A stretch of 63,062 bases of DNA, filler included, from Psammoneis japonica (GCA_008632985.1; 2 parts of 2 records of this genome joined end to end with filler, not necessarily neighbours in it), one strand, 5' to 3'. Counted from the whole stretch's first letter, positions 13,050 to 61,740 are shown. The notes: a model not told the origin generated them from the sequence alone. Numbers and translations: made by a program.

Positions 13050-15594
13050 CTAATCCCCAGACGATCCGCCGGCACAGGGTTCATTGGCCTTTCCCTTGCA
13101 AGGGAACTTGGTGTGTTGGAGTGTTTTCCACTTGCGGCAGAACCGTTCCGCGTTGGAGCTACAGTGGTTTTGGAAGCAACCAACGATTGGTGGAGCCTGC
13201 TGTTGGATGAATTTTCTGGCTCCCTCTGTCACTGATGGCTGTCCTTGCTCGTGGCACTGCTCCCAAATCTTGACAACAATGTCTGGCTTTTCTGCCGTCT
13301 CCATTTTTCTCTTCTTCAGCTTGTGACGGTCTTCAAGGTCGTTGCCATCAGATCCTCTCTTTTTTTTGTTCGATGATTTTGATTTGACAAGCAAACTGTC
13401 ACCGGCAGCAACACCAGTGAGTGCACTGGCAGCAGCAGGTGCAACAATGTGCTCGCTCACACTTGCAATTTCGTTGAGTTTCATTTTCCAGGCTTGTCGT
13501 ACTTGAGAGGCTTGTTCGATTGGCAGTTTCGAGAGAACATCTTCCAGCGTAGCATTGGAGTCTCCAGCCCTGCGCCACTTCATTGCTTGATCAACCAAAA
13601 AAGTGATGTCCATTGCGCCTGGATGATTTGGAGGGATCATTGACTTTCGAAAAATAAAATCACAGGTGAGTTGTCCGATCGATTTTTGGAATGGAACTGC
13701 AGGGGCATTTGTCTGACTCAAGTTGCCTTCGCTTTCTCGCAGGACACACTTCCACTTTGATGGGACATGCTCCATGGGATCGTCATGAACAGCACCGACA
13801 TCCTTTGGCGACAATGCGTCCATGCGGCATTTTTCGGCATGCGTCAGGGTCTTGTGGCGAGCACTCTTCATGATGTCCACCATTGTTGCATCAGCCCACA
13901 CGCAGAACAGGTGAGCTGTCTTGCACAAGCTGTGCATTCCAAGCTTGACGTTGGGCTTGTTCAATGCTGTGCGAAACATTTTCTGATGACGAAGCGGGCA
14001 AAATTCAGGAAACTCTTCCTCCTCCCACAATGCAAGTCGAGCTGGATGTGGATCAGACTTTCCTTGAATTTGAGCAACTGACCCATGCACGCCCATTGCC
14101 GTCACGACGGTCAGGGTTGTGAGGAAATCGGATGTCTCCATCTCACTGAACTCATCTTGACGGAGGAAGAGGCGGATGGCAATGAGCATCATCACGAACA
14201 ACTGGAGGCCTTGTGTCGACGCGTTCCAGGTCTAGGTGGGACCTCGTACTACTGAACTGTGACATCGATAGTTTTTTGAATCACGTCGTATGTCGCGCAC
14301 GTAGATTTCTACGTGATTTTTTCGATATTTTGTGTCATTTTTACGGTACACTTATTGAGCGATCCGTCCAACAACTTTTGACATTTTTTGTTACAGCGCG
14401 ATTCTATAATGTCTTAAGAATCGCGTAGGGCAGGCGCATTTGCAAAAACGTCGAGTGGCAAGAGGCATAATTGTACCACAAACTTGGCAGTTTATTTGAT
14501 GTTGAAGATAAATATATCCATTAATTAAATTCTCGTACTACGGAGCTCGCACGTAGAATTCTACGGGCCCAATGTCACACGGAGTCCCACCTAGGACTGG
14601 AACCCGTCTGTCATGTTGCTCGAGAGGAGGTGGTTTCGGAGCAGGCGTGTGTCCTTGGGCAAGAACTGTTCGCAACCGCAGCTCTTGTGTTTCGCCCCAT
14701 CCTTCTTGTTTTTTGCACGCGACAATTGTTCCATGCCTCAGAGCACACAGGACTTCCTTTGCAGCGAAGCTTTGGATGCCCCGAATGTGCATCGCAGCCC
14801 TTGAATCGGTCCTCTGGTGGAAGACGAATGCAGTCAGCGCAATGATTCTGCAGTTTGCCGCACTGATCGTGAATCTCATGGAGTGTGTTCACTGCTGTGC
14901 ACAAGCCGGTGACACAATCTGGATCCTTCCACTCACCTGTGCATTCGATGGGAGCACCGCGCACATCTTTCACAATCTCATCATCGTCTCCCCGCAAAAG
15001 AACGCCCTTCTCATGACGCTTGCACTTGCAGAAAAGCACGATGCTCTTTGGGTCCATTGAAACGCAGTTTTTTGGTGCGTGCTCATGCAACATTGACAAA
15101 GAATCGCAGTCGCCAACAAGAATGAGGAAACGGCCAAGATTGCCCAGCACGCCATTGTGCTTTTGCTTGCTCTTCTTTTTGCAGCACCTGGTGCCAAGCC
15201 ATTTTTCAGCCTTCTCGTTGGACATCGTCAGTCCCATCTTTTCAGCCGCCTCGACTGTCTTTTCCTTTGCCATTGCCATGGCAGCAGCACTCGGAAGCGG
15301 CGCTCCATGCTTGATTTTGAAACGACCATTGTCATTGTCAGCATGAGTTCGATCAAAGCAACGGTTGCTGTGCGAGAAGGGGGCCAGAGCTCGCGTTGCC
15401 ATGGTGATTCTGGGCTTTTGTTTCCACTCGTTGTGCTCTCGAGGTTGCTTTGTTTGCTTTTTCACACATTTCAAACCTTGGTCGATGGCGCAATTTGGCT
15501 CGAGTCCACATGAACTTGTCAAACAAAAGTTGTGCTCGCTTTCAGTCATGGACTTAAAACACCAATTTCCCTCAAGTGGGTCAGTTTGGGGCAA
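13050..15594 (-). mobile_element. Degenerate tyrosine-recombinase element (Crypton-like), split by a MITE
   Basis: ORFs 14611-15594 and 13050-14201 flank the MITE. Motifs LFLRQDE (R), QGKSD (K), HSLCKT (HxxR degraded) and ARHKTLTHAEKC (H...Y with Y>C). No Tyr in either ORF. True element ends not found. Confidence 0.65.
14218..14608 (+). mobile_element. MITE copy 1 (391 bp), TpA-intact
   Basis: Imperfect TIRs GACGCGTTCCAGGTCTAGGTGGGAC / GTCCCACCTAGGACTGGAACCCGTC; 4-bp TSD TGTC. Confidence 0.92.
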
Positions 15595-15892
15595 GAAGGA
15601 TTACTTGACACCGGCCATTTCAAACTCGTGGGTGGGTTGGGTCAGTCGCGGGGCAGGCGCTATGTATTTGACAGGGGAGGATCCTGTATTCCCCTTGTTG
15701 TTACGGTCTACAGTACAGTAAACACTCAAAATGCCGGGGAGAGAAACGGAAGGATGCGACGATTGTGACGCGTGATGACGCTCGGACGAAGGTCAGGGTT
15801 GTGTGTGCTTTTTCAAGCACCCAACACAAAAGACACGCATACAAGAGACAAGAATGCCGCGACGACGCCGGCACCCACCGCAAACGACAACA

Positions 15893-17140: not shown

Positions 17141-17251
17141 GGTGTGATTTATAGTCTACAACGAGCTCTGATAGACAAATAATGCAACCTGTTCAATATT
17201 TCTAAAATATCTCTTGACGCTATTTTGTCGTTTAAAAGAAGTAAAAGAACC

Positions 17252-22199: not shown

Positions 22200-22325
22200 G
22201 ACACTCGTCTCACTTTCGCGATTGATATCATCTCCGCCCGACTGGACAGTTTAGATAGAGCTATTTATAAAGATGATAGCGACAGAGCAACACTACTGTT
22301 AAGACTATTCGTGTAGCAACCCAAG

Positions 22326-24443: not shown

Positions 24444-24995
24444 CGGTGCTCTTGCTGTGTCTGGGATCATTCTTATTATAACGTGTAATTCATAGTCTAC
24501 ATTTTATTTCGTATCCTACCATATTCATCCTTCCACACCTTACTGTATGGCCAGCTGAGCATAATGGTTTCATTAATCTATCGTGAGTTGATAAGCTATG
24601 ATGGCGAGCGGTGATGTCGGGAGTGTGCTGGACTTGCATATATCGAGTAGAAGTAGACTTCCTAGAGTAAGAGAGAGAGAGGGCTAACAGACAACCACCA
24701 CTTAAAGGACACTACTAAAAGGAAACAGCTAAGGCGAGCGAGAAGCATAGCTACGGTACAGGCAATAATAAATACCGGTATGATCCAGAGGAATAAGGTA
24801 CAACAGCCTAATCCTGTCCACTTTTCCGATTCCCGCTTTTCGCTGTCGTTCTCGCATCACTCATGCACCGCAGGGCAGCGTGCACTCTCGCATCTCGCAT
24901 CTATCGTATCTCGCATCTCGCATCTCTCATTCGTTGTTCAACTTTTGTTCGTATTGAAATGACGTTCCTATGGCTTTGTTGTTCTCATTATCATT

Positions 24996-27900
24996 ATGAA
25001 AGATCAAACATCAGAATATGAACATCTCTTTGGTCGTGAGAAAGAAAAGTGTAGACTTCACGAGGCCTACGAGCGGTGCTGTTTCGCACCTCCGCATCAC
25101 AAAGAGCTTGTCTTGATCTGCGGCAAATCTGGAACCGGAAAGTCGGCACTAGCCCAGTCGGTACGATCATTCGAAAACTGCAGATTCCTTTCAGGGAAGT
25201 TTGACCAGCACTGTCGATCAGAACCTCTCTCTGCTTTTGTGGGTGCTTTCTCAGAATGGACTTGTAGCACTCCCCAGCCAGGCGTCGGAACCATGAAACT
25301 CGATCCGATTTTGGTTGATGTCATACCAGCACTTGGAGATGCTTCGACGACAAAAGCACCACAAAGAAAATCTTTGTCAAGGCCTAGCAATGTCAACATG
25401 AGTCTCGCCCAGAAACAGCGCTTCTTGGCCGCCTTTTCCGAATACGTTCAGAGTATATGTAGCGAGCAGCACCCACTCGTACTGTTTTTGGATGACTTAC
25501 AGTGGGCCGACAAGGGGAGTTTGGAGTTACTTTCGTTTTTAGCTTGTAGCTCAATAAGGGGATTCATGTTGCTAGGTGCGTGTCGTGGGAATGAGGTGGC
25601 AATCGATGATCCGCTTGCGGTCACATTTCGTGACATGGAAGAGAAGGGCGTGAAGATCACGAATATTTCGTTGTACAACTTTTCAGAAGACGAGGTCCAA
25701 AACATGTTGGTGGAATACTATCCCTCACCCAATGGTGATTTGAGCATGGTTTCAAAATCTGTTTATAACCAGACAGAAGGAAACGTATTCTACATTGTAC
25801 GCCTCGTCAAGCTGTACCAGGAGCAGGGTGTTCTGAGTAAGCTGGCCAATAGCGAAGAAGCTATAAAGGATTCCTGGCAATGGGATTTAGAGCTGATCCC
25901 GAATCTGAAGCAGAATATATCGGACGTAATGAGAGAAGTACTGCAAGAATTACCAAAGAATGTTCAAATTGTTTTGCAGTGTGCTGCGAGCTTGGGCGCG
26001 GTGTTCCTCGTGTCACACCTTGAGTTGGTTCTGGACGATTCTTCACACGACATTCGGGCGCCTTTCAGATTGGCTTTCAAAAGGAAATCATAACTTATTC
26101 ATCAACCAAGTGCAAGTTTACCCATGATCGACTGCAAGAAGCTGCATACAAATTAATTCCCGTGGATGAGAGGGCCAGAATTCATGCGTTAATTGGACTT
26201 GCGCTGCTGAGGAAGCTGCCAGAGGATGAGCTGGATGACTTTCTGTTTCTGGTTGTGAACCAGCTAGGATCTGGAATGAATGAGATTAAGGACTCTGAAG
26301 ACCTAGCTCGTTTAGCAGAGCTATGCCTCCGTGCGGGGGAGAAGGCGGCGGCCTCTTCAGCCTTTAGTACAGCGTCAGAGTGTTTTGATCTCGGAATAAA
26401 ATGTCTTGATCCACATCCAAAACTACGGCGAACCCATTACGCCTTTGAGCCTCGCACTTCTTTTGACCGCCGCTGCCGAAGTGGAGTATTGCAACGGGCG
26501 ATTTGACAAGATGAGCACCCACGTTGACGAGGTTTTTGAGAATGCCCGATGCTTTGAAGACAAGATACAGTCCTACTCCACTCACGTTTTTAGTCTTGGC
26601 GCACAGCAGAAATTTTCAGAGGCAATCGACGTTGCGTTCTATGTTTTAGGAGAACTAGGCGAGCCCTTCCCATCCCGAGCGGGAAAGTTGCGTGTGGTGG
26701 TAGATCTAATAAAAACGAAGCGCATGCTGCGAAAGACATCTCCGGATGACATTTTGAAGCTTCCAATCATGACAAATACTACTCATTTAGCGGTGATGCG
26801 AATGATGAACTTGGTTTATCTGTACGTTTTCTTCACGAGACAAGCCTACATTCCTTTACTATCAACACGTTTTGTACAAGCGACTTTGAAGTACGGTTTG
26901 AGTGGAATGGGCAGCTCGGGGTTTGGTATGTACGGGATGCTGTTATGCGGTGTACTCGGTGAGATCGATGAAGGATACAAGTACTGTCAGGTGGCGCTAC
27001 AGATAATGGATAAATTTCAGGCCAAGGCATACACTGCGCGAGTCTACGTTCCGGTATGGGGTATGGTGACTCCTTGGAAGAGACCTGTTCGAGAGTGTTT
27101 GGAAAAGTTAAAGGATGCTCATCGGGCAGGGTTTGAATCTGGCGATATTGAGGTGAGTCGACTCTACTGTAGATATGGCACAGATACTCCTCCTTCCTTG
27201 TCAAGATTTCAACTAACGCGCTGCTTGTAGTTTGCATCTCTCAGTGCCATGCTTTACTCGTTCATGTCGTTTTTCGCTGGAGTTTCACTTGCGACCCTTG
27301 TCGAGGAGATGCGTGCGTTTCTGAAAGAAATGAAGGTTCACAGTCAGACTGCGATTCTTTCACTGCTGCTGCCCGCAGCACAATTGGTGGACGGTCTCAT
27401 GGGTAATAGCAACGATCCTTGTGTTTTGACTGGAGAGTTTATGAACGAAGACAGACTATTGCAGCAACTGCAAGGCAGCAAGAGCTCGGCAGCGGTCGTT
27501 ACTCTTCATATGCGTCGACTTGTCGGTGCCTACATTATGAATAACTTCCATTTGGCATTCGAGTGCGCTGAAAAGTGCAAGAGCATCAACAAGGAAATTG
27601 TATCGTCGCTCTCCAACTCGGTGCAAGCATTTTACGATGGCTTGACGTGTCTCGCACTGGCACGACAGACAACGATTCGAAAACAAGAACGCCGGCGTCA
27701 CGTGTCTCGAGCACGCCGTAGCCTGAAGAAACTGGTGCAATGGGAAAAGAAGGCTCCAAGCAACTTTTCCAACAAGGTTCTTCTTTTGGAAGCGGAGATT
27801 GCAAGTGTCACAGGAGACACCATGAGAGCACGAGCCAAGTATACGCTTTCCATTGAACTTGCCGAAAAGGAAGGTTTTTTCGTGTGACCACGGTATTGCC

Positions 27901-31836: not shown

Positions 31837-31936
31837 NNNNNNNNNNNNNNNNNNNNNNNNNNNNNNNNNNNNNNNNNNNNTTAATTAATTAANNNNNNNN
31901 NNNNNNNNNNNNNNNNNNNNNNNNNNNNNNNNNNNN
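31837..31936. other. Artificial contig-join spacer
   Basis: 44 N + TTAATTAATTAA (stops in all six frames) + 44 N = 100 bp. Confidence 0.97.
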
Positions 31937-41662: not shown

Positions 41663-44600
41663 TTGGCTGAGGGCTCACACGTTGAATTGCGGTGGAACAT
41701 GCGCTTTCTTCTTGCCGATTCGATGTGGACACGGAGTTTTGCCTTTTCACTCTCGTCAGTGATCCCCAATGTGCTCGAATTCATCGTCTTTGCCCTGCAA
41801 CGGGGTGTCGGCGGCGGGTGAATCGGAAGGTTCCTCGTTTCAGCACAGCGCCATGGTGGGGTGCTGTTTTGGGCGGTCAACTCGAATGCAGGGCATGGGC
41901 GGTTTGACGTAGAAAAGATGCCGGGTGGGAAGATTGGTGGAAAGATGTGCTGAATTCGCCCATGGAGTTCCACACGCACAAAAACTGCAACAGCGGCGAG
42001 GACAACACCAGCATGCATGGTTTGGGGCGGGGAGACAACACGCAAAAAGGGAGACGCACGTGTGTACGAACAGTGCCAAGAAAGGTGCACAAAAGCAAAG
42101 CAGATGGTGAGTTCGTTCGCCTGTGACGCACGCAACTTGAATTTAGAGCATTGCAAACATCGGGGCAGTTGGAAAATTGCCGTTTGTTTGATGTGAACCA
42201 AAATTGGGACATTCATTGTTGCACATCATTTGTTGAGAATGGCAAAAAAACCATTGCACATCATCTGCAGTTTGATTCCCCGGGAACAAAACTGCAGGAG
42301 GCTTTTTTCTGGCTGCTGGCAGGGCCCTGGGCGGAAGGAAGAAAGAAGTTGACGGCCCATTTTCTTTGGTGAAAGGAAGGCATGAATGCAAAAACTGGGT
42401 GTCCAACAATGGCAACAAGCCACCGGGAGGGTTGAGTGCATTGACAAGGTGCCGTTCAGTGCCTCGGAGGAGAGAGATGGACGGAAACCAGAGCATGCTG
42501 CAAAAAGATTCTGGGGGGCACGACAATGCAGGGAGGAGAGTGCCAAACATCAATCAACCTAAATGTGGTTTGCTTGTTGCCATCACAAAAAATGCCAGGA
42601 GCGGTGGGGAAGGTTTGGAGGAGCTGTTGTTCTGTGCGGGAACACGGGTGTTGGCAAATGGTTGTCTGGTGAGCGAAAACAAAAAGTGCAGCACACGTTG
42701 AAAACCCACGTGAGTTTTGCACTGTCACAAAAAAAGCCCATTGAGAAGCACGGCAACCAGCATCACCCACACACGGGTGTGAACACTGCGCTCCACACGG
42801 TGTGATGCTCTGCACAAATCCAGCGTGTCACACGCGTGTGCGCTGCGTGCACACACTTGAGCTCAGTCGCGCACACGCTTGGGAGGGCCTGCCTTGGCAG
42901 AGCGTGATGCAGTCTTTGGCTTCTTGTTGGGGATGGTCAAGGAAGGCTCTTGCATGGTGAATGTGAACAAGAGAACAAAACGTGGATGTGTGAGAAGACG
43001 GATGCACAAGAAACATGCTGCAACAAGGAGGGGGGGGGGGGGGGGGCATGTGCCGTCGTACAAAGAACAGGTGCCGTCTTTGCGGGTCCTCCCAATTTTG
43101 CATTTGGTTTTGGATTGACACTCTCATTTGTCATCATCATCCAAGCAGTCGGCCCTCTGATCACGCATTCTGCATTGAAGGATTGTGAGCAACTTGCTGC
43201 ACTTCAGTTGCATGCCAGGTTGTTCCTTGGGACAGCACTTCCCAAATTTGTGGCTCAACATGGAATTTGTTTTTTCTTCGTGCGCCTCTCAACGGGCAAG
43301 GGAATCACCATCCATTGTCACTTTGTTCTTTTGGAGTGAGGTGTTCCTCAATGTTGTCCGCCTGAGAGCCCGGGTTGTTGGAATTGCACGGCACTAGAAA
43401 GCTGTTGACGAACAGGCGCCACTCCTTTTGCGATTGGACATGGCAAAAAATCTGCATGAACCAGCAGTCGAAGTCATTTTGTTTGCACTGAACGTGACGC
43501 GTTGCGATTTCGGTGACAAAAAATGCACCGTGAAGGTCTTGTGCACGGTCGTCGATCAGTTTTTTGAGATTGTTGCACTTTGAAAACCGGGGACAAGGCT
43601 TGCTGGAAACGGGATCATTCAGGTCGTCACCGGCAACAATCGCACAGACAAATTCTGCCATGGCTTTGATGTTGCGGCGAAGATTCGTGCGGCGCACTTC
43701 TTGTTCAACTGTCTCTCCGGGCATTTTTGAGAAACAGAGAGCTTTGTCCAAATTTCGACAATGAAGGTGGCATTGACCTTTCAGCGAGCGGGATTTCTTC
43801 AGGGACCAACCACGAGTCTTGATGCAAGACCAAATGTCAGGGCATCCAAGAGTTTTCCCGACGATGTTGTTGGTGTGGACAACTTCCGCGACATGTGGAA
43901 TTCAGTGTAACTTCGGCTTGTGGCAAAGGAAGGGAAGAGCGAGAAATTGCGGAGAGGGAGTCCATTGTGTCGATTCCAAAAACTGCTTTTTGGATGCACG
44001 CATTGAAGCTGTGCTTTTGAGCTTGGGACCAAACAACTCCATTCCAAAACCATTGGCAAAATGTTCCATGTCATCAAAATCACATTCATCAGGAAATTGG
44101 AAGGAAGGATCGGGGTCGACCTCGTCATGAGACGGGGTGAAGTCATTGACCGCCATGGCAAGAGGTCAGTTGTGATTTGCGCAGAAAGCACGTGGATGAC
44201 AACAGCACATGCTCAGGTGGAAAGCAGTTTGGGGAGAGGATGTGCTGTCATGAAATGCGCAGACAGTTGCGCATGCAGAGCGAGTGCCCAAATCAGGGTA
44301 GAGAGCCATGCACAGAAATTCTGGGAGGTGCTGGAAAAATGATGCTGGAAATGTGCATGGGGGAGACTGGAGCGCACCGAACAGCAGAGGATGCACCAGT
44401 CAACACGGTGGGGTGTGTGTGATGTGGAGCTGTTAAAAACCAAAATCAAAGATGTCGGTTCAATGCAAATGTGACAATGAGATCAAATGGAAATTTACAA
44501 AATCCAATGAAAGCAAAAATCAAATTAAATTGTTGAGAATGATCAAACACAAACAGATGACAAATGTCAGCACAAAACGGATTTAATGAGTTCAGTGTGT

Positions 44601-44753
44601 TGTTTCAATTTACCTGCAAAAAATTGCAGTTGAAGGTGCAACAAAAACAACTTCAGTTGGCAACATTTGCGTGCAGAAAATTGAAAACCACCACATTGCC
44701 GCCTCTGATGTTTGCGCATTTGCTCATTTGCACACTTCCATGAAGCTCCAAAG

Positions 44754-45150
44754 GACGGGTTCCAGTCCCAGGTGGGACTCCGTGTGACATTGGGCCCTCA
44801 GAATTCTGCGTGCGAGCTCCGCAGTAAATTTGTGCTGCAATGAAAATGTGAATGATTGCCAACAGAAAAAGAGGCAATTTTGCGAATGTGTCTCCTCCTT
44901 CATGCTTGCTGCACATCATTGACAGTTTGCCCGGGTGTGCTCTTCAGACATTAAAGAATGCACCCAGTGTGTTTTTGTTCTCACAAATGTTGAAAATAGA
45001 AAGCCTTTGGCTTTGCAAAACAGGGAGCATGAAACAATTTCGTAGAATGTGACATGCAGAAATGTGCGTGCGCGACATGCGACGCGATCCAAAAAACCAT
45101 TGATGTCACAGTGCAGCAGTGCGAGGTCCCACCCAGAGCTGGAACGCGTC
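44754..45150 (-). mobile_element. MITE copy 2
   Basis: GACGGGTTCCAG...GGAACGCGTC; TSD AAAG. Confidence 0.9.
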
Positions 45151-45623: not shown

Positions 45624-46012
45624 GACACGTTCCAGGTCTGGGTGGGACCTTGCACTGCTGAACTGTGACATCGACAGTTTTTTGAATCGTGTCGCATGTC
45701 GCGCACGTGCATTTCTACGTGATTTTGGCAAAATTTTGTGTGGTTTTACAGCACATTTGTCAGGCTGTCCATTGAACAACTTTTAATGTTTTTTTCTTCT
45801 GCGCCATTCTCGAGTGTCTTGAGAATGGCGTGGGGCAGGCGTGTTGTCCAAAACTTCGAGTGCGAACAGGGACAGATGCACCACAAACTTGGCCATTTTT
45901 TTTGTGTCGAAGACAAACACATCCATCAACCAGAGTGCGAACTGCAGAGCTTGCACACAGAATTCTGCGGGGCAAATGTCACAAAAAGTCCCACCTGGGA
46001 CTGGAACCCGTC
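45624..46012 (+). mobile_element. MITE copy 3
   Basis: GACACGTTCCAGG...GGAACCCGTC; TSD GGGG. Confidence 0.9.
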
Positions 46013-46269: not shown

Positions 46270-47310
46270 ATTTTGTGCCCTTGACCACTTTGCACTTTTG
46301 CTCTTCCTGGTTCATTGCCACTGGCCACTTTGTGCCCTTTGCGCCTTTGTGCCTTTTGCGCTGCCCTTGGCCAATTTGTGCCCTTTGCAACTTTGTGCCC
46401 TCAGCTGCTGTTTTGCACTCTCAATGCGTTCCAGCCCTGGGTGGGAGCTCGCAGCACTGACGTGTGACACAAATGATTTTTGTCATCCGTTGCATGTTTT
46501 GCACGCACATTTCTACGTGTGACATTTAAAAAAAATTGTCCAGACTTGCTGTTTTGCGAAGCCCCAGACGTTTTACATGACGAATTTATAGAAACAGCAA
46601 TGTGCCAGTTGCGTTCTTCAATGTCTGAAGAATGTAACTGGCCAAGTGAAAAACGATGTGCTTCAATCATGTGCGAGTTTGTGTGTTCGCAAAATTGCCT
46701 CATTTTCTGTTGGCAAACATTGACACTCTAATCACTGCATGATTTTGCTGCGGAGCTCGCACGTGGAATTCTACGGGCCCAATGTCACGCGGATTCCCAC
46801 CTGCGTCTGGAACGCGTCTCTCACTCCGTTTAGTGATTTTTTTTGTGCCCCAGGAAAGTTTGTGCCCTTTGTGATTTTGTGCCCTCAACTCCCATTTTTT
46901 GTCATTTTTTGTTTTGTGCCCTTGGCCATTTTGCACCTTTGAGATTTTGTGCCCTCAGTCATGTTGCACAATTCTTGATTTTGTGCCCTTGACCTTTTTG
47001 TGCCCTTGGCTGTTTTGTGCCCTTTCCTTTTTTTGTGCCCTTGAGCATTTTGTGCGTTTTGTGGTTTTGTGCCCTTGGCCATTTTGCGCCCTTTGTGACT
47101 TTGTGCCCTTGTCCATTTTGCGCCTTTTTTGGTTTTGGGCCCTCAGCCGCATTTGGTGCCCCTTGCGACATTGTGGTTTTGTGCCCTTTGCCATTTTGGA
47201 CCCTTCATGATTTTTTGCCCTTGGCAGCTTTGTGCCCTCAGCCACCATTTTGCACCCTCAGTCATTTTGTGACCTCAGCAATTTTGTGCCCCTGCCTGGT
47301 TTGTGCCCTT
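46270..47310 (+). repeat. Degenerate TTTTGTGCCC-motif array; continues at 54881-55010 after the Copia insertion
   Basis: Many ttttgtgccc(tt) motifs at about 20-bp spacing; the same sequence recurs near 56160, 57915, 59410 and 62260. Confidence 0.88.
46423..46818 (+). mobile_element. MITE copy 4, partly TpA-retaining
   Basis: AATGCGTTCCAG...GGAACGCGTC; TSD TCTC. Confidence 0.85.
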
Positions 47311-47541: not shown

Positions 47542-47937
47542 GACGGGTTCCAGCCCCAGGTGGGACTTTTTGTGACATTGGGCCCGCAGAATTCTGCGTG
47601 CGAGCTCCGCAGTAAAATCATCAAGCAATGAATGTGTGAATGATCGCCAACAGAAAAAGAGGCAATTTTGCGAACGCATCTCCTCCTTCACACTTGAAGC
47701 ACATTCTTTGTGGCATGCCCGGGTGTGTTCTTTGGACATTGAAGAACATGCCCTGTGCATTTTCATTGACATGAGTGCAGATGACAGAAAGCCTTTGGCT
47801 TTGCAAAACAGGCAGTGTGGAACAATTTTTTGCAACAGAACACGCAGAAATGTGCGTGCAAAACATGCGACGGATGACAAAAAACAATTGAGTCACAGTT
47901 CAGCAGTGCGAGGTCCCACCCAGAGCTGGAACACATC
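47542..47937 (-). mobile_element. MITE copy 5, nested in the Copia leader
   Basis: GACGGGTTCCAG...GGAACACATC; TSD CACC. Confidence 0.9.
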
Positions 47938-50099: not shown

Positions 50100-53000
50100 C
50101 ATGCACTTTGCCTGGATCGGTCAAAATCAAAGCAAAAGTGCGAGACTTTCACCACAAGTTTTAAAATTGCACCAACAGAGACATGGTCTTGTGAGCGAAA
50201 TTGTTGATGATGCCCGCGCATTTGAAACAGCTCTTGAAAACCGCGGACGCTTCATCCGTGGTGGCCATGTGCAAGCAAGACCTCACTCGACATCTGCATT
50301 TGTTGACAAACGCGATGCACCACAACTGGTCAAAGCACATGAGACTGCTGCTGCCAGAACTCCTGAGGAGAACAAGGAGTCACCAAACACTCTGGCAGAG
50401 CATGCTGCACATTTGGCAGATGAGGTGCCAACCCTCACATCCGACGAGACACATCTCATCATTGACTCGGGTGCTTCCACCACAATTTGAAACAATGAAA
50501 ATGACTTTGTTGGTTGCATGCGACCCATCCAAAACTTGGACTTAAAGGGTGTTGCATCTGGCCCAGCCATTGAGGGCATTGGCATGGTGAGATGCGGCTT
50601 TGTGGATGACAATGGCAACAATTTTGCCATTGATGTCAACAATGTGCTGTGTGCACCCACCTGCCCGGTTCATCTGCTGTGCCCTCAACAAGTGGCAGCT
50701 GCCAGCCCCAATGAGGACACAGATGGGTTCTTTGCAAGGGGCAAGTCCACGACAATGATCTGTGGACAACATCGCAAAACCGTGCAATGCCATCACGAGT
50801 TGAATCTGCCGATTCTTGCTGCGGCTCCAGGCTTTGGCAATTTTTGAGCTTTCTGCTCTGACATTGATGCAAATGGCAAACTGCCACCTCGCACCAACAC
50901 AAAGGCATGTTCGGCTTCGCATCCGGCTTTTGCTGTCACAACAAGAAAGCAAAAGGCGGCGGCCAACACAAACAAACAACAGACTTCTTACAATCAGCAG
51001 AGCAAAAAGTCAAACGAAAACAAAAAGAAACCAAGGCCTGCTCAGCCTCAACAGGACCTGCCAGTCCACGAGGGGGGCACAGAAGACAACCTGCTTCCCA
51101 TCCAATGCGACATGTTGAAATTGCACCATCGCATGGGACACGTTGGTTTTGAACAAATCAAAGAATGGGCCAAGATTGGTGCTGTGCCAAAACGCTTTGC
51201 AAAATGCAAAGCTCCAGTCTGCAAAGCATGTGCTTGTGCAAAAGCCAAGCGCAAGGCAGCTCAACGTGGTCACCGCATCAATGAATGCCACGACAACGCT
51301 CCAGGTCAAGGAGCATCTGCGGATCAACTTGATGCGAGTCATCCGGGCCCACTTCCCACTTCTCGTGGCAAACCAACTGCTTGCAGGTGCAAACATTGCA
51401 CTCTGTGGATTGATCACTTCTCTGGATTTATCCATCCTCACATGCAAGAGTCCACTGGAGGAAAAGAGACCTTGACTGGCAAAACCAAGCTCGAGAGATT
51501 CACAGCAAAACACAATGTAAAAATCGAGCACATTCATGCCGATTGACGGCACATTCGCCGCCGCAGAGTTCACACAACACTGCGTTGAAAACAAACAACG
51601 AAACTCCTTTTGTGGAGCAGGAGCACACTGGCAAAACGGCATCTTGGAATGCTGCACAGGCGTCATCACCTCGATGGTGCGAACACACCTGTCACACGCT
51701 CAGCCCCTCTGGTCTGATGCAGCAACCATGGAATTATGGCCATTTGCCATCAGACAGGCTGTCAATTTCCACAATGTGTGCATCCGAAAAGGAAAAGAGA
51801 AAAACCCCTGGGAGCTGTTCACTGACAAGAAACCGCCATTTCAAATGGACGATTTTTGCGTGTGGGGGTGTCCTGTTTACATCGTGGACAAAAGTGTCCA
51901 AGGCGGGACTCACATTGGAAGATGGGCCGAACGGTCATGCCAAGGGGTGCACGTGGGACATTCGCTGGACCATGCCAGCAATGTCCATTTGGCATGGGAC
52001 CCCACAACCAAACACGTCTTGCCACAATTTCATGTCACATTCGACGAAAACTTTGCAACAGCAGTGCCTGGAAAGACATCAAGCAATGATCTTGAGGCAG
52101 CTCTTGAAAAATCATTTGATGACCATGCAAACACTTGGACTCACCATGATGAACATTTCGACCACAATCAACATTGTTTTGAAAAGAATGTTTGGAGCAA
52201 GGACGACTTGCTCTGCAAACATGGTGTTGACCCTCAAGCGTGCAAACAGGCGCAAAAGACCAACCACAAATCATGAGGGAGAAAAAGAGACTGTGCTGGA
52301 CAAGAAAAGCCAGACGATGATGACACACCATCTGAGATTCTGCCAGCTGTTGATGTCTCGGCCGACACACCGACACATGTGGCAGCTGCACTGGCAGACA
52401 CAACAATGCCAGCAGAATCGGCACACGCTGAAGCCTCCGAGGCTGCGCCACCTGCAGCAGGAGGTTCTGTGTCGGAGAGAGCAGAGGGGACCCACTCATT
52501 GTCAAACCGACTGCTGTCAGTTGACAATGCAACACCGTTGATTGTAGAAAATGCAGTCACCCAGGGCCCAACTGTGGCAACTCCAGAGGATGCTGCAACT
52601 TCTTCGCCAACGAAAGAAGCCCTCCAACATTCAAACAATGAAGCAGACTGTGCTCGTCATCAACTTCATGAATGCAAATGCCAAAAAGGTTTAGATGACG
52701 ATGCGACTTGCACAACAGCACAGAACAATGCAAAAAACAGCAACTCACCTGATGCGAACGCGCACATCACAACACCTCTGTGCCACAAAGAAGTTGCAGC
52801 TGAGCCACACGAAGAGCTTGCACATCTGATGGCACTTGTGGGTTCAGCAGACAATGACATGCTTCTCGACGAAGACACATGGAATGAATCCAGTCCACTC
52901 ACTTTCGAAGCAGCGGCGCCAGGAGACGTCGACACCCTGACCCAGGGCCAGATGAAAAGAGCACCAGACCGTGCCAAATTTGAAAAAGCCCAAGTTCCAG

Positions 53001-54520
53001 AAACACAAGGGCTGGCAGATGTGGATGCATGGGAACACATGCCACGTTCTGAAGTGCCAAAAGACCACCGGCTGTCAAGTGCAATCTGGTCACACAAAAG
53101 AAAAAGGAAACCAAGTGGTGAGCTTTCAAAACACAAAGCCAGAATGTGCGTCGACGGTTCCAAACAACAACGTGGAATGGACCATTGGGACACATTCGCC
53201 CCAGTCGTCGCATGGAGTGCGGTGTGACTGACATTGTGTCCAGCGGCAATCGCCGGTCTGAAAAGCAGACAAGTGGATCATGCGCAAGCATTTCCACAAG
53301 CAGAGCTGGAAGAACCAGCATGTGTGAGACTCCCAGAAGGGTGGGAAGTGAAAGACAAAAATGGAAACATCATGCCAGACATGGCATGCAAACTGAAAAA
53401 GAACTCACGCGGCATGAAAACTGCTGCACGAAACTGGTTCCAGAAACTGTCAAAGGGGCTGGAACAATGTGGTTTCAAGAAATCAAAAATGGACCCATGT
53501 CTGTTCATCAGAAATGACTGCATCATCTGCTTGCACACAGATGATTGTTTGGTTTTTGCTCCAACGAACTACATTGTCACTGCACTCATGCAAGAACTCA
53601 AGCAAGACGAGCTTCAACTTGCCGACGAAGGCGATGCACCCGCTTTCCTCAGTGTGGATGTCGCCAATGCCGTCGACGGCAAAATCCACATGACCCAGAC
53701 AGGTCTTGTTGATTCCACGTTGAAAGACCTCGGTCTGAGGTCCCACAACAATGAACCATTGCAGAACAGGCCACAAACAAAGGCTGCTCCAGCAGCACAA
53801 ATGCTGCACCCTGACACAGACGGTCAGGAGCATCAAGAACCGTGGAACTGCCGGTCTGTTGTCGGAAAGATGAGCTCTCTGGCACAAATGACTCGACTGG
53901 ACATTGCAGTGGCAGCGCACATGTGCGCCAGATTTTCCAACTGCCCAAAGGCATTGCACGAACAAGCAGTTGAGCGCATCGGACGTCATCTGCTGGCAAC
54001 TTCAACAGACGGCATTGAGCTCCGGCCGAAAGGGAAATTCTCCCTGGGTGCATGTGTTGACAGCGACTTCGCGGGAATGTGGCACAGAAATTTTGCCCAT
54101 CTCCACGAATCGCACCTGTCATGATCAGGGTGTGTTGCCACATTTGCAGGCTGTCCAATCTGTTGGAAGAGCGAGGCTGAACTCGTTGCACTGTCACAGT
54201 GCCTGAGAGAGCCACTTCCAATGAGAGCTGTGCCAGAAGAACTGTCCAAAACCATGGATTTTGAACTGGCAAATTCACACATTGAATCTGGTTCTCTGGA
54301 AACTCGTGTGCTTCCACACAAGCTTCCCCCGTCCACAGCGCATGAAGACAAAACAGGATGCACTGCACTGGCCACCTCTGACAAGCAATGCAGAGCTGGA
54401 GCCAAGCACACAAGCATCAAATGGATGCACTTTTGGGACCACACAAAACGTGGTTCTGTGAAGAAGGCAGTGAAAGTTGGCGACACATTGAGCAGTCCAA
54501 ACAGACTGCTGCTTCACTCA
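50100..54520 (+). pseudogene. pol: Copia pol (protease, integrase, RT, RNase H) with stops and frameshifts
   Basis: IIDSGAS; LHHRMGH...CKAC; HIHAD, QNGILE; HKARMCVDG, DTFAPVV, CLHTDDCL; ACVDSDFAG, HEDKTGC, KHTSIKW. Confidence 0.92.
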
Positions 54521-54710: not shown

Positions 54711-54880
54711 TGTCACGTTCAGCTGGAGCTCACAGGACAGATGGACAGACGGACGGATGGACAGACGGAGCTCATTCGCACTGACTCAGAGAGATGATGT
54801 CGAAGATTCTCTGACGCAGCTGGCTCGTGGACCACAGAACAGTCGCAAGCCTCTTTGGCTCACAACATCCACACAAGACA
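54711..54880 (+). repeat. 3' LTR
   Basis: Preceded by PPT gagggag and followed by TSD ccctt. Confidence 0.95.
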
Positions 54881-56005: not shown

Positions 56006-57133
56006 TCATTTTCGCATTTTTGCATTTTCGCTGGCGGTCTTCAAATCAAGAACAATCTCGCCACATGTTGCAGGGGGGCGCTGAAGGGCCACAGCCCACT
56101 GGCAGGGTGCTGATCAAACAAGATTTGCGGCACAAGTGTTTGGTGCTGGGGGCACCTTTGAGATTTTGTGCCCTCAGCCATGTTGCGCAATTCTTGATTT
56201 TGTGCCCTTGACCTTTTTGTGCCCTTGGCTGTTTTGCGCCCTTTCCTTTTTTTGTGCCCTTGAGCATTTTGCCCCATCTCGTGGTTTTGTGCCCTTGGCC
56301 ATTTTGTGCCCTTTGTGACTTTGTGCCCTTGTCCATTTTGTGCCTTTTTTGGCTTTGGGCCCTCAGCCGCATTTGGTGCCCCTCATGATTTTGTGCCTTC
56401 AGCAATTTTTGGCCATTGTGGTTTTGTGGCCTTTGCCGCCTTGGACCCTCTCTGATTTTTTGCCCTTGGCAGCTTTGTGCCCTCAGCCACCATTTTGCGC
56501 CCTCAGTCATTTTGCGGCCTCAGCAATTTTGTGCCCCTGCCTGGTTTGTGCTCTTTGTGATTTGGCGCCCTCAACAGACATTTTTTGTCCTTTTTGATTT
56601 TGTGCCCTTGGCCATTTTGCTGGTCACGACAGAGTTGCAGAACAACAAGAACCTGCCCAACGAAGAGCGGGGCAAAGGAGAGAAAGTGCGCGAGATGACA
56701 AAGTTGGACCCAACAGCACATGCATCAGCACGCGAGTCCAAGTCGTTGGCTGCCTTGCCGTGTGAATGCCCAGCAGATGACAAAGAGACATGTGGACAAA
56801 TGCAGATTTTTTCAAGGAAATCAAACGTCAAGGAAAACAAGCGCGTCGTTTCAAGGAAAACAAACACGTCATTTGAAGGAAAACAAGCGTGTCATTTCGA
56901 GGAAAACAAACACATCTTTTCAAGGAAAACAAACGCGTCGTTTCAGGGAAAACAACACGTGGTTTCAAGGAAAACAAACGTGTCTTTTCAAGGAAAACAA
57001 ACCTGTCAAACAAACGTGTCATTTCAAGGAAAACAAGCACGTCGTTTCAAGAAAAACAAACGCGTCATTTCAACAAAAACAAACACGTTGTTTCAAGGAA
57101 AACAAGTGTGCTTTTTTTTAAGAAAAACAGACC

Positions 57134-57387
57134 TTTCGCATTTTCGCATTTTCGCATTTTCGCATTTTCGCATTTTCGCATTTTCGCATTTTCGCATTTT
57201 CGCATTTTCGCATTTTCGCATTTTCGCATTTTCGCATTTTCGCATTTTCGCATTTTCGCATTTTCGCATTTTCGCATTTTCGCATTTTCGCATTTTCGCA
57301 TTTTCGCATTTTCGCATTTTCGCATTTTCGCATTTTCGCATTTTCGCATTTTCGCATTTTCGCATTTTCGCATTTTCGCATTTTCGC
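57134..57387 (+). repeat. Perfect (TTTTCGCA)n octamer array
   Basis: 30 perfect units at 57141-57380 plus partial flanking units. Confidence 0.97.
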
Positions 57388-57456
57388 TGTCTTCAAATCG
57401 AGGACAATCTCTCCACATGTTGCAGGGGGGCGCTGAAGGGGCGCAGCCCGCTGGCA

Positions 57457-57852
57457 GACGTGCTCCAGCTCCAGGTGGGACCTCACACCACTGAACTGTG
57501 ACACAGTCATTTTTTGTCATCCGCCGCATGTTTCGCGCGCAAATTTCTGCGTGTTCTGTTGCAAAAAATTGCTCCACACTGCCTGTTTTGCGAAGCCAAA
57601 GGCTTTCTGTCATCTGCGCTTGTGCCGACAAAAACGCGCTGGGTGTGTTCTTTGATGTCTAAAGAACACACCCGGGCATGCTGCAAAGAATGTGCTTCAA
57701 GTGTGGAGGAGGAGATGCGTTCGCAAAATTGCCTCTTTTTCTTTTGGCGATCATCCGTGCATGTGCTGCTTGGCAATTTTGCTGCGGAGCTGGCACGCGG
57801 AATTCTGCGGGCCCAGTGTCACAAAAAGTCCCGCCCAGGACTGGAGCCCGTC
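57457..57852 (+). mobile_element. MITE copy 6
   Basis: GACGTGCTCCAG...GGAGCCCGTC; TSD GGCA; empty site cactggcaggg in sister units. Confidence 0.9.
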
Positions 57853-60077
57853 GGCAGGGCGCTGATCAAACAAGATTTGTGGCGCAAGAGTTTGGCGCTG
57901 GGGGCACCTTTGAGGTTTTGTGCCCTCAGCCATGCTGCCCAATTCTTGGCTTTGTGCCCTTGACCTTTTTGTGCCCTTGGCTGTTTTGCGCCCTTTCCTT
58001 TTTTTGCGCGCTTGGGCACTTTGCCCCATCTCGTGGTTTCGCGCCCTTGGCCATTTTGCGCCCTTTGTGACTTTGTGCCCTTGGCCATTTTGCGCCTTTT
58101 TGGGTTTTTGGGCCCTCAGCCGCATTTGGCGCCCCTCATGATTTTGCACCCTCGGCAGCTTTTGGCCATTGTGGTTTTGTGCCCTTTGCCACCTCGGACC
58201 CTTTCTGATTTTTTGCCCCAGGCAGCTTTGTGCCCTCAGCCACCATTTTGCACCCTCAGTCATTTTGTGACCTCAGCAATTTTGTGCCCCTGCCTGGTTT
58301 GTGCTCTTTGTGATTTGGCGCCCTCAACAGACATTTTTTTGTCCTTTTTGATTTTGTGCCCTTGGCCATTTTGCTGGCCACGACAGAGTTGCAGAACAAC
58401 AAGAACCTGCCCGATGAAGAATGTGGGGCAAAGGAGAGAAAGTGTGCAAGATGACAAAGTTGGGCCCAACAGCACATGCATCAAAACAAAACCAAACATC
58501 TGTGTTTTAAGCGCTGCTGCGCTTCCACCCTGCAACTCCGGCAACAAGCCAACCCACACCCCCAGCGCACCATTGGTGCGGCAGGAGCAAACAGCGATTG
58601 GCCGAGATTTTCGTCACCCGAGGGTGACGCCGCGCCGAAATGACTTGCAGCGGTTCTTGTGCCTCGTGCAGCCAACCGTTTGGCTTCCCGCATGCTTGAT
58701 TTAAAGACTGGTTTGAACACAGCCAGCCAGTTTCGAAGCCTGTGTGTTGAGTGTGTTGGGTGGTCTTCCACCAAATCCAGGAGGAGCGCTTTGTCTCTGG
58801 CCAGACAATCATCCGTTCGGGAGCAAATGGCTCCAACCTTCGCTTCCGCATCTCTCCTCTGAGAAGATTTCCTGGTTTCCGAGTCGTGCAGGTTTTTTCA
58901 AGGAAAACAAATGTGTCGTTTCAAGGAAAACAAACACGTTTTTTCAAGGAAAACAAACATGTCGTTTGAAGGAAAAAAAAATGCGTCATTTCGAGGAAAA
59001 CAAACATGTCTTTTGAGGGAAAACAAACGTGCCGTTTCAGGGAAAACAAGCACGTGGTTTCAAGGAAAACAAGCACGTCTTTTCAAGGAAAACAAACCTG
59101 CAAAACAAACATGTCATTTCAAGGAAAACAAGCACGTCGATTCAAGAAAAACAAACACGTTGTTTCAACAAAAACAAACGCGTTGTTTCAAGGAAAACAA
59201 GTGTGTTTTTTTTAAGAAAACAAACCTTTCGCATTTTCGCATTTTCGCATTTTCGCATTTTCGAATTTTCGCATTTTCGCTGGTGGTCTTCAAATCAAGA
59301 ACAATCTCGCCACATGTTGCAGGGGGGCGCTGAAGGGCCACAGCCCACTGGCAGGGCGCTGATCAAACAAGATTTGCGGCGCAAGTGTTTGGCGCTGGGG
59401 GCACCTTTGAGATTTTGTGCCCTCAGCCATGTTGTGCAATTCTAGATTTTGTGCCCTTGACCTTTTTGTGCCCTTGGCTGTTTTGCGCCCTTTCCTTTTT
59501 TTGTGCCCTTGAGCATTTTGCCCCATCTCGTGGTTTTGTGCCCTTGGCCATTTTGTGCCCTTTGTGACTTTGTGCCCTTGTCCATTTTGTGCCTTTTTTG
59601 GCTTTGGGCCCTCAGCCGCATTTGGTGCCCCTCATGATTTTGTGCCTTCAGCAATTTTTGGCCATTGTGGTTTTGTGCCCTTTTCCGCCTTGGACCCTTT
59701 CTGATTTTTTGCCCTTGGCAGCTTTGTGCCCTCAGAAACCATTTTGCGCCCTCAGTCATTTTGTGACCTCAGCAATTTTGTGCCCCTGCCTGGTTTGTGC
59801 TCTTTGTGATTTGGCACCCTCAACAGACATTTTTTGTCCTTTTTGATTTTGTGCCCTTGGCCATTTTGCTGGTCATGACAGAGCTGCAGAACAACAAGAA
59901 CCTGCCCAACAAAGAGCGGGGCAAAGGAGAGAAAGTGCGCGAGATGACAAGGTTGGACCCAACAGCGCATGCATCAGCACGCGAGTCCAAGTCGTTGGTT
60001 GCCATGCCACGCGATTGTCCAGCAGATGACAAAGAGACGTGTGCGTTCATTGGGAATCGTCTGGACAAATGCAGGTT

Positions 60078-61740
60078 TTTTCAAGGAAAACAAACGTGTC
60101 GCTTCAAGGAAAACAAACACGTCGTTTGAAGGAAAACAAACACGTCGTTTGAAGGAAAACAAACACGTCATTTCAAGGAAAACAAGCGTGTCTTTTCAAG
60201 GAAAACAAACACGTCATTTCAGGGAAAACAAACACGTGGTTTCAAGGAAAACAAACACATCTTTTCAAGGAAAACAAACATGTCTTTTCAAGGAAAACAA
60301 ACCTGTCAAACAAGCGTGTCATTTCAAGGAAAACAAGCACGTCGTTTCAAGAAAAACAAACGTGCACTTTCAACAAAAACAAACATGTTGTTTCAAGGAA
60401 AACAAATGTGTTTCTTTTGAGAAAAACAAACATGTCTTTTCAAGTGAAACAAACACGTCTTTTCAAGAAAAACAAACACGTCATTTCAAGGAAAACAAAC
60501 GTGTCTTTTCAAAGAAAACAAACACGTCGTTTCAAGGAAAACAAACGTGTCTTTGCAAGGAAAACAAACACATTGTTTCAAGGAAAACAAACACGTCGTT
60601 TCAAGGAAAACAAGCGCGTCATTTCAAGGAAATCAAACAGGAAAACAAACATGTCGTTTCAAGGAAAACAAACACGTCATTTCAAGGAAAACAAACACGT
60701 CGTTTCAAAAAAAACACACACAATTTTTTTTGACAAAAACAAGCGCGCTGTTTCAAGGAAAACAAACATGATGCGCTCCAGGTCCAGGTGGGACCTTGCA
60801 CTGCTGAGCTGTGACATCGACAGTTTTTTGAATCGCGTCACATGTCGCGCACGTGCATTTCTGCGTGATTTTGGCAAAATTTTGTGTGGTTTCATGGCAC
60901 AATTGTCGGGCCATCCATTGAACAACTTTTGACATTTTTTTCTTCTGCGCCATTCTCGAGTGTCTCAAGAATGGCGCAGGGCAGGCACGCTGTCCAAAAC
61001 TTCGAGCGCGAACAGGGACAGATGTGCTGCAAACGCAAGCTTGGCCATTTTTTTGTGTCGAAGACAAATGTGTCCATTGGCCAGAGCACGAACTGCAGAG
61101 CTCGCACGCAGAATTCTGCGGGGCAAATGTCACAAAAAGTCCCGCCTGGGGCTGGAACCCGTCACATGTCTTTTCAAGAAAAACAAACACGTCTTTTCAA
61201 GGAAAACAAGCACGTCGTTTCAAGGAAAACAAGCACGTCGTTTCAAGGAAAACAAACACGTTGTTTCAAGAAAAACAAACACGCCATTTCAATGAAAACA
61301 AACATGTTGTTTCAAGGAAAACAAGCGTGTGTTTTTGAGAAAAACAAACGTGTTGTTTCAAGGCAGACAAACACATGTTTTTAAGAAAAAACAAACTTTG
61401 CAAGGAAAACAAACGTGTCTTTTCAAGGAAAACAAGCACGTCTTTTCAAGGAAAACAAGTGTGTCTTTTCAAGGAAAACAAACATGTTGTTTCAAGGAAA
61501 ACAAACACGTCATTTCAAGGAAAACAAACACGTTGTTTTGATGAAAACAAACATGTTGTTTCAAGGAAACCAAACATGTTTTTTCAAGGAAAACAAGCAT
61601 GTCTTTTCAAGGAAAACAAACATGTCTTTTCAAGGAAAACAAGCGTGTCTTTTCAAGGAAAACAAACACGTCATTTCAAGGAAAACAAACACATCATTTC
61701 AAGGAAAACAAACACGTCGTTTCAAGGAAAACAAACACAA
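60078..61740 (+). repeat. Approximately 22-bp minisatellite (TTTCAAGGAAAACAAACACGTC-like); also at 56810-57125 and 58895-59225
   Basis: Dozens of caaggaaaacaa cores. Confidence 0.92.
60770..61163 (+). mobile_element. MITE copy 7
   Basis: GATGCGCTCCAGG...GGAACCCGTC; TSD ACAT. Confidence 0.9.

Follow-up and report, generated by a model that had tools for sequence, protein, structure and literature searches.

Copies of one transposable element that differ in the same way at many sites raise the question of which state is the older one. The question is posed here by a window of 63,062 nucleotides (the whole stretch of DNA analysed) from Psammoneis japonica (GCA_008632985.1), in which a miniature inverted-repeat transposable element (MITE) is present in seven copies and the same site may read TA in one copy and TG or CA in another. 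A preliminary description of the window took TA to be the ancestral state and the copies to have mutated independently after insertion. Comparison of the MITE copies, the abundance of a TA-rich form of the element, the loss of tyrosine codons from a Copia reverse transcriptase and the precedent of Bigelowiella natans (Mettrop et al., bioRxiv 10.64898/2026.01.13.699255) agree on TA as the ancestral state. It is judged likely that repeat DNA in the window underwent hypermutation in place, from TpA to TpG or CpA, of the kind described in Bigelowiella, probably through deamination of adenine.

The window consists of two contigs joined by an artificial linker of the six-frame-stop type. The span of the MITE copies, 14218–61163, therefore crosses contigs, and copy 1 lies on a different contig from copies 2–7. 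A sharp TA border near 32 kb was considered as a biological boundary and rejected, as it is the assembly linker. Contig 1 carries host genes, and contig 2 contains six MITE copies, a Copia element in decay, and repeats of both the dispersed and the tandem kind. The features on which the argument depends are as follows (TSD, target-site duplication).

31837–31936: linker, N44 + TTAATTAATTAA + N44
31937–63062: contig 2, TA-depleted throughout, transposon- and repeat-rich; 94 TA, 3.0/kb
13052–15600: segment A, a 2.1-kb TA-depleted stretch in gene-rich contig 1 that hosts copy 1; 4 TA outside copy 1
14218–14608, + strand: MITE copy 1 (subfamily A); TSD TGTC, 29 TA
44754–45150, − strand: MITE copy 2 (subfamily B); TSD AAAG, 4 TA
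45624–46012, + strand: MITE copy 3 (subfamily A); TSD GGGG, 3 TA
46423–46818, + strand: MITE copy 4 (subfamily B), partly mutated; TSD TCTC, 8 TA
47542–47937, − strand: MITE copy 5 (subfamily B); TSD CACC, 1 TA
57457–57852, + strand: MITE copy 6 (subfamily B); TSD GGCA, 1 TA
60770–61163, + strand: MITE copy 7 (subfamily A), within a tandem-repeat array; TSD ACAT, 0 TA
50848–54121, + strand: decayed Copia-type retrotransposon (gag-pre-integrase; RVT_2 in two frames), conserved tyrosine codons all converted

Direction of change in the MITE and in Copia

The copies were located by a BLAST search of the window with copy 1 and then aligned with MAFFT; the seven found in this way agree with the earlier numbering. 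Each is about 391 bp long and non-coding, with terminal inverted repeats GACGCGTTCCAG...CTGGAACCCGTC, and a 4-bp TSD of varying sequence is present in all seven, so that these are genuine MITE insertions; short length, lack of coding content, terminal inverted repeats, TSD and high copy number are all features of the class. Two subfamilies have their ends in common and differ in their interiors, A comprising copies 1, 3 and 7 and B copies 2, 4, 5 and 6. The number of CG per copy is 15–30. The letters given in the preliminary description are those of the sequence: ggtcTAggtggg at 14229 and gaagaTAaaTATAtccatTAat at 14504 in copy 1, ggtcTGggtggg and, at 45909, gaagaCAaaCACAtccatCAac in copy 3, and ggtcCAggtggg and, at 61060, gaagaCAaaTGTGtccatTGgc in copy 7. 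The contrast between cgTAcTActg and tgCAcTGctg is likewise present in the copies.

Copy 1 was used as a stand-in for the subfamily A ancestor. Of its 29 TA sites, 23 are occupied by a pyrimidine followed by a purine in copy 3 as well as in copy 7. At the resulting 46 copy-sites TG or CA is found in 44 and TA in the remaining 2, whereas the CG sites of copy 1 have changed to TG or CA at 17 of 46 copy-sites. CA sites of copy 1 are unchanged in both other copies in 11 of 23 cases, and TG sites in 14 of 22. Per base, transitions between copy 1 and copies 3 and 7 affect the T of TpA at 24/58 and the A of TpA at 20/58, compared with 13/184 for T elsewhere. The change is almost solely A>G or T>C, as it also is in the five tyrosine codons of the Copia element described below.

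The outcomes at the two copies argue for independent decay after insertion. Copies 3 and 7 show opposite products (TG in one, CA in the other) at 7 of 21 sites, which cannot be explained by TA arising in copy 1 only. At palindromic four-base contexts, which favour neither strand, the products are opposite at 6 of 10 sites, as expected from independent mutation. Between copies 3 and 7 there are 65 differences in 405 aligned positions (50 transitions, 15 transversions). Adjacent CA/TG doubles, 14 in number, account for 28 of these transitions, a pattern far beyond chance; copies 5 and 6 likewise differ by 14 such doubles (28 transitions), with a transition to transversion ratio of 54:8. Fourteen adjacent doubles in each old pair make independent single changes from a TG or CA ancestor impossible. 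The preliminary description had named, as the outcome that would overturn it, a phylogeny rooted on CG or TG/CA, with TA derived in copy 1 alone. TA is not restricted to copy 1, as copy 3 retains TA at two of the copy 1 sites and copies 2 and 4 retain it at nine sites of subfamily B. In that subfamily, TA occurs together with TG/CA at 9 sites and CG together with TG/CA at 17, and TA together with CG at none, so that there are two distinct ancestral classes, each draining into TG/CA. Part of the TG/CA in the copies is therefore derived from CG.

MITE palindromes such as CGTAGAATTCTACG (14553–14566 in copy 1, with homologous places in copies 2–7) show both products side by side. In copies 5 and 7 the left TA has become CA and the right TA has become TG, preserving the palindrome as CGCAGAATTCTGCG, and in copies 4 and 6 it is disrupted. 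A metagenome scan with a degenerate pattern of the MITE right end gave 0 matches.

The immediate surroundings of copy 1 are devoid of TA for 578 bases to the left and 963 bases to the right, and the 391-bp copy itself holds 29. Logan contigs from three runs of one sample, among them X1 and X2, were aligned to 13400–15400 at 80% likeness. X1 provides 3126 contig pieces for this stretch, nearly all of them on copy 1, with identities of at least 99% in 456, 95–99% in 894, 90–95% in 1209 and below 90% in 567; 1350 of the 3126 are thus at least 95% like the copy 1 stretch. Summed word depth, which is not a copy number, is 135,000–436,000 over copy 1 and 165–494 in the flanks. Among the 40 listed of 233 differences, the well-supported variants within copy 1 are limited to 14489 A>C and the deletion of one base at 14338. 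Copy 1 thus closely resembles the consensus of a MITE family that is large, young and rich in TA.

Segment A itself is a member of a multi-copy family, represented by several diverged contigs per place. One X2 contig connects 14218 to 14614 and omits 395 bases (391 + 4), an exact empty site in a paralogue, and an X1 contig omits 398 bases at copy 1; both contigs represent MITE-free paralogues of segment A, and they confirm copy 1 as an insertion. Among 29 listed differences between segment A and the X2 paralogue, 12 are TG/CA in the window against TA in the paralogue, 9 are TG/CA in the window against CG, and 2 are CG>TG. Copy 1 has remained intact because it was inserted recently, when the DNA around it had already been mutated.

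Some further observations concern the nature of segment A. It has no Pfam match. A 1451-base contig of X2 (labelled ‘DNA?’) matches it over 13405–15073 at about 90%, and none of the runs is listed as RNA. Three pieces, of 77, 83 and 83 bases and each bounded by GT..AG or GC..AG, are missing from this contig, much as they would be from the spliced transcript of a paralogue; the + strand frames of the window under this spliced model contain at least 10 stops. For the TA-free open frame at 13053–14231 (− strand), a protein-atlas feature search placed integrase and tyrosine-recombinase clusters nearest (score 0.91, 141 shared features), a weak lead towards a Crypton-like or other tyrosine-recombinase element.

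Ancestry of TA is supported independently of the MITE by the Copia element. Its reverse transcriptase frame (53228–54121) was aligned with 47 relatives, and tyrosine columns were those with tyrosine in 45–46 of the 47. None of the 5 conserved tyrosines is retained: the codons read CAT, CGC, CAC, TGC and CAT (H, R, H, C and H), and the YxDD box reads HTDD (codon CAC). Conserved columns of other residues are largely kept (W 4/4, F 7/8, G 11/12). Further replacements are I>V, as GTY after a t at 4 of 5 sites, I>M as ATG, V>A as GCA or GCG, and T>A as GCN after a t. As judged from protein conservation, these tyrosine codons would once have carried TA.

Extent, order and neighbour preference of the TA loss

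The loss of TA is a property of whole stretches of DNA, flanks included, and in this respect the preliminary description, in which the change was read from MITE copies, was too narrow. Contig 2 has 94 TA in 31.1 kb (3.0/kb, observed/expected (O/E) about 0.05), compared with 1112 in 29.3 kb (38/kb) of normal contig 1; over 1–31836, including the host genes of contig 1, TA O/E is about 0.5–0.6. Every full 1-kb window of 32001–63000 has a TA O/E of 0.16 or less, with TG and CA O/E mostly 1.3–2.1, and contig 2 in this respect matches the clusters of successive 1-kb windows described for Bigelowiella (cut-offs Rho TpA ≤0.43, Rho CpA+TpG ≥1.52). For contig 2, O/E is about 1.6 for TG/CA and about 0.65 for CG, the latter compared with about 1.0 in contig 1. 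The balance per kb is −35 for TA, −14 for CG and +52 for TG+CA. From contig 1 to contig 2, TA falls from 38.0 to 3.0 per kb, AA rises from 78 to 89.5 and AT falls from 61 to 49; TA is the one dinucleotide that collapses, and the change is in this sense confined to TpA. What was converted is transposon and repeat DNA (remnants of Copia, six MITEs, and repeats in tandem or dispersed) and not host genes. In contig 2 (31937–63062) no host gene or host-gene domain was recognised, nor was any viral gene.

Products at palindromic TA contexts in contig 2 are balanced between the strands (767 vs 778), and no strand bias on the scale of the contig was found. A runs test for long tracts of strand-coordinated products gave z = −2.47 for contig 2 and −1.05 and −0.52 for contig 1, much of the former being explained by the tandem repeats at 59.9–61.9 kb (38 vs 89). 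The near-absence of TAA and TAG means that 64 frames on the two strands of contig 2 stay open for 150 codons or more, each with 0–2 tyrosines. Of the 24 largest open frames 19 have no Pfam match, and for the 662-aa frame at 39689–41674 no relative was found; the long frames were considered as genes and rejected as artefacts of stop-codon loss. As a separate observation, 18 of the 94 remaining TA in contig 2 fall within about 1.1 kb (44299–44611, 44825–45043 and 46514–46772), that is in copies 2 and 4 and the stretch preceding copy 2, which suggests later insertions or partial escape.

The order of events can be read from duplicates within contig 2. Pairs of 91–96% identity have 1–3 TG/CA doubles each, and one pair has a single double in 1125 aligned bases, in which about 40 former TA sites would be expected. 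In the same pair 27 of 58 classified differences are CG against TG or CA, and young duplicates differ chiefly in this way. It follows that TA was exhausted before duplication and that CpG decay continued afterwards. The loss of TA thus predates both the 91–96% duplications and the insertion of copy 1, and copies 4 and 2, with 8 and 4 TA, look like intermediate cases beside the untouched copy 1. Decay of CpG to TpG or CpA is a slower, parallel process that is still continuing; CG falls from 58/kb in contig 1 to 43.8/kb in contig 2, with the gain of TG/CA in repeats that such decay brings. It is presumably the usual consequence of 5-methylcytosine (5mC) on transposons, and diatom transposons are reported to carry this modification (PMC9998398).

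The 94 TA that survive in contig 2 are unevenly distributed among sequence contexts. The numbers of TA left in contig 2 and present in normal contig 1 are listed below for each four-base context, complementary contexts being taken together.

TTAA: 21 left in contig 2, 49 in normal contig 1
CTAA: 21 left in contig 2, 90 in normal contig 1
GTAA: 21 left in contig 2, 132 in normal contig 1
CTAC: 14 left in contig 2, 160 in normal contig 1
CTAG: 5 left in contig 2, 56 in normal contig 1
GTAC: 3 left in contig 2, 86 in normal contig 1
ATAG: 5 left in contig 2, 100 in normal contig 1
ATAA: 4 left in contig 2, 170 in normal contig 1
ATAC: 0 left in contig 2, 178 in normal contig 1
ATAT: 0 left in contig 2, 91 in normal contig 1

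These counts were fitted with a model in which the rate of conversion of A on each strand is set by its 3′ neighbour. The fitted rates are 3.1 for T, 1.6 for C, 1.05 for G and 0.45 for A; all ten classes fit, and four rates are better than a single rate (chi-square 108, 3 degrees of freedom). The products, which show the strand that was hit, were checked in contig 2, in one of two counts without its tandem-repeat part. A loss of 2.8/kb of ATAA is matched by a gain of 2.8/kb of ACAA, with no gain of ATGA; the products of CTAA, GTAA and ATAG go in the predicted direction, and those of CTAC are neutral. At polarised MITE sites in biased contexts, 8 of 11 outcomes fit the model. The dependence on the 3′ base is less firm than the loss of TA itself; its firm part is the poor response of TAA, and the ranking of T above C as the 3′ neighbour, which makes TAT the best target, is less so. 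Relative to the Bigelowiella report, the 3′-neighbour preference, with TAA spared and TAT exhausted, seems to be new.

Proposed mechanism and its alternatives

For two viral regions integrated in the genome of Bigelowiella natans, 231 new mutations are reported, of which 230 are A>G or T>C, all of them at TpA (10.64898/2026.01.13.699255). According to the same preprint these mutations arose de novo in mutation-accumulation lines, in episodes, at a rate raised about 1000-fold; the genome has 124 clusters of windows that are low in TpA and rich in CpA+TpG, genes poor in TpA are enriched in transposon domains (reverse transcriptase, DDE), and an ADAT2-like enzyme is proposed as a candidate. By analogy, the window would record the same kind of targeted hypermutation as in the integrated viral DNA of that species. 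As in Bigelowiella, TpA alone is targeted, giving TpG or CpA according to strand; TpA-poor, CpA+TpG-rich blocks extend over kilobases, non-host or repeated DNA is the target, and an adenine deaminase is the proposed agent. The host, in contrast, is a rhizarian there and a stramenopile near the diatoms here, and the DNA affected is that of integrated nucleocytoplasmic large DNA viruses (NCLDV) and virophages there and of transposons and a repeat family here. O/E is about 0.05 over 31 kb, indicating saturation, compared with a reported Rho of 0.45 in the NCLDV region of Bigelowiella, and a 3′-neighbour effect is seen here. Direction was witnessed de novo there, whereas here it is deduced from copies and protein conservation.

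The sequence shows the following course of events. A high-copy MITE family has a recently active, TA-rich form, of which copy 1 is the representative, and copies 2–7 were inserted long ago in a repeat-rich contig. Nearly every TpA in contig 2 and segment A was converted in place, by A>G on either strand, the conversion taking MITEs, the Copia element and the intervening DNA alike to saturation (from 38 to 3 TA/kb) and leaving neighbouring host genes and the young MITE copy alone. Most likely, adenine in silenced, repeated or foreign DNA was deaminated enzymatically to hypoxanthine, probably by a DNA adenine deaminase, and hypoxanthine would be read as G at the next replication; the process would be a functional analogue, of opposite chemistry, of fungal repeat-induced point mutation (RIP). 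X1 contains many TA-rich MITE pieces of nearly the same sequence, which indicates that repetition alone is no trigger, at least at a length of 391 bp, and the process may be either episodic, as in Bigelowiella natans, or reliant on a chromatin or small-RNA signal.

Several points weigh against this interpretation. The window has seven copies, and the ancestor of subfamily A is represented by copy 1 alone. Copies 3 and 7 agree in their product at 14 of 21 sites; the agreement is attributed to context bias, and part of it could reflect shared ancestry. One TA site of copy 1 reads CA in all six other copies, and here TA may be derived in copy 1. A without a preceding T also differs as A>G at 23/144 between copy 1 and copies 3 and 7, so that specificity for TpA inside the MITE is about 2- to 6-fold per base and not absolute; part of this signal is probably due to changes on the line of copy 1 itself or to alignment noise. 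X1 is possibly the source data of the assembly and hence not independent, with 40 of the 233 differences listed, and the two contigs are connected solely through their common MITE family. The context model presumes that contig 2 originally had the TA contexts of contig 1, and the product share at ATAC is 0.55, compared with a predicted 0.33. Moreover, TA is self-complementary, and a change beginning at T (T>C at A-T-A) looks the same in sequence as one beginning at A; direction, enzyme and base modification are deduced from sequence and not from de novo events.

Among the other explanations, a technical one would be that modified A or T at TpA is miscalled as G or C by a long-read base caller. 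No library type is recorded for the runs, the contigs of the window are linked in a rough assembly, and near-complete, regional conversion would also be possible for a chromatin-bound modification. Against this, the young duplicates of contig 2 share their TG or CA states and the old MITE pairs differ at 14 places, which points to inherited states; a single contig holds a TA-rich MITE within TA-free flanks; and a Logan contig record of 153 bases with a TA-free flank agrees without difference, though it comes from the same sample. The same signature is reported for Bigelowiella natans from Illumina reads (10.64898/2026.01.13.699255), and a miscall is regarded as improbable. A smaller chance is given to ancestral CG at the variable sites, from which deamination of 5mC gave TG or CA, with TA in copy 1 the result of both steps. 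CpG decay is real, as the CG depletion of contig 2, the 17 of 46 copy-sites, the 17 sites of subfamily B and the prevalence of CG/TG and CG/CA among the differences of young duplicates attest, and two of the discordant sites of copies 3 and 7 are CG in copy 1; the report of 5mC in diatom transposons (PMC9998398) also suits it. CG is not exhausted, however (15–25 per old copy; 43.8/kb in contig 2), whereas TA is (0–8 per copy; 3/kb), and double changes would be needed at 29 sites of copy 1 alongside 30 retained CG. Subfamily B lacks any site combining CG with TA, and the change of tyrosine codons to CAY or TGY is beyond the reach of CG decay, which is thereby contradicted as the principal cause.

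Hyperediting of transposon transcripts from A to I by an ADAR-like enzyme, fixed through reverse transcription before integration, is thought very unlikely. The mutated sequences do include a Copia retroelement, and A>G with a 5′ U is an ADAR-type neighbour preference, as noted in the discussion of the Bigelowiella preprint (10.64898/2026.01.13.699255). Yet across 31 kb conversion is equal in MITEs, which move as DNA, and in the sequence that separates the elements; both strands are about equally affected, and copies 3 and 7, like copies 5 and 6, diverged at TG/CA sites once they were already separate copies. ADAR prefers a 3′ G, whereas the favoured 3′ base here is T. The least probable explanation of all is that the lineage of copy 1 was the one to mutate, through RIP-like C>T at CpA/TpG that made TA from ancestral CA or TG. 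Fungal RIP consists of C>T transitions, mainly CpA>TpA, exactly the change required, and the sites at which copies 3 and 7 agree, together with the one at which six copies read CA, would fit. It is contradicted by the sites with TG in one of these copies and CA in the other, by unique DNA around copy 1 and copies 2–7 that is equally TA-free, by the tyrosine columns lost in the reverse transcriptase and by the TA also retained at homologous sites of copies 2, 3 and 4. In-place conversion of TpA is thus retained as the preferred reading.

Relation to known systems and further content of the window

RIP in ascomycete fungi is an analogue in its effects, being a transition hypermutation in place that ruins repeats and mobile DNA, flanks included, leaves a dinucleotide signature and destroys coding capacity. 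It differs in direction: C>T, mostly at CpA, yields TA- and AT-rich DNA, whereas here TA is destroyed and GC slightly raised. In addition, hundreds of near-identical 391-bp MITE pieces retain TA here. Decay of methylated CpG also gives TG and CA and is the second component in the window, but it cannot remove TA or make CAY/TGY from TAY, and it is slower, continuing after TA was exhausted. ADAR and ADAT/TadA enzymes likewise convert A to I, which is read as G, with U or T preceding the target; the target of ADAT/TadA in tRNA is U33-A34. Their substrates are RNA, whereas genomic DNA would be required here. The preferred 3′ neighbour in the window is T, which no ADAT tRNA substrate is known to have.

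The main text of the Bigelowiella natans preprint, as far as available, does not mention diatoms, stramenopiles, flanking bases or the words ‘trinucleotide’ and ‘downstream’ (10.64898/2026.01.13.699255). No report of TpA-specific hypermutation in diatoms or other stramenopiles was found in the literature, most subscription journals lying outside the coverage. It is tentatively proposed, with somewhat less than even confidence, that a TpA-directed defence by DNA adenine deamination also exists in ochrophytes near the diatoms, and possibly across algae of the SAR group (stramenopiles, alveolates and rhizarians), that it silences transposons up to saturation, and that T-A-T is its best target and T-A-A is spared. 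If real, this would be a second, distantly related lineage with TpA>TpG/CpA hypermutation after Bigelowiella natans, and it would make of a single-species oddity a candidate for a widespread genome defence of marine algae, the adenine counterpart of RIP. The MITE family would offer a clean natural experiment, in which a young TA-rich master form can be set against old mutated copies, and the saturated 31-kb block supplies enough sites for a neighbour preference to be read. The preference for T-A-T over T-A-A could, if true, serve as a fingerprint for finding the enzyme, a natural DNA adenine editor, and genetically tractable diatoms among the relatives of the host could make the search for it testable. 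On the practical side, TA-free DNA yields long false open reading frames (ORFs) and hides transposon homology, and gene callers and repeat annotators are misled by it.

The affinity of the host was assessed from a questin-oxidase-like ORF. Its best named relatives are from the diatoms Odontella, Epithemia and Nitzschia (44–52% identity), followed by other ochrophytes, and two other relatives have 73–75% identity. On this comparison the host would be an ochrophyte with diatoms as its nearest named relatives. In addition to the questin-oxidase-like protein, contig 1 encodes a pseudouridine synthase, a G-patch protein, AsnA, an LRR-Roc-TIR protein, NCA2, EMP24, an EF-hand/COPI protein and an AAA_16/NACHT protein. 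An unbroken frame of 1370 aa at 8446–12558 (− strand) has LRR_6 repeats, a Roc/Ras GTPase domain and a TIR domain, and its LRR portion (11476–12417) is an internal repeat with an 84-bp period and 86–89% identity. At 24963–27884 (+ strand), frames that weakly resemble TPR repeats come after an AAA_16/NACHT-like ATPase frame, and the whole may be a single STAND-type gene with introns or frame breaks.

In contig 2, a tandem array of approximately 23-bp units (gtttcaaggaaaacaaacac-like) occupies 60065–60768 and 61164–61740, the two parts being separated by MITE copy 7. Arrays related to it are found at 56795–57187 and 58887–59280, and the units vary chiefly by CG, TG and CA.

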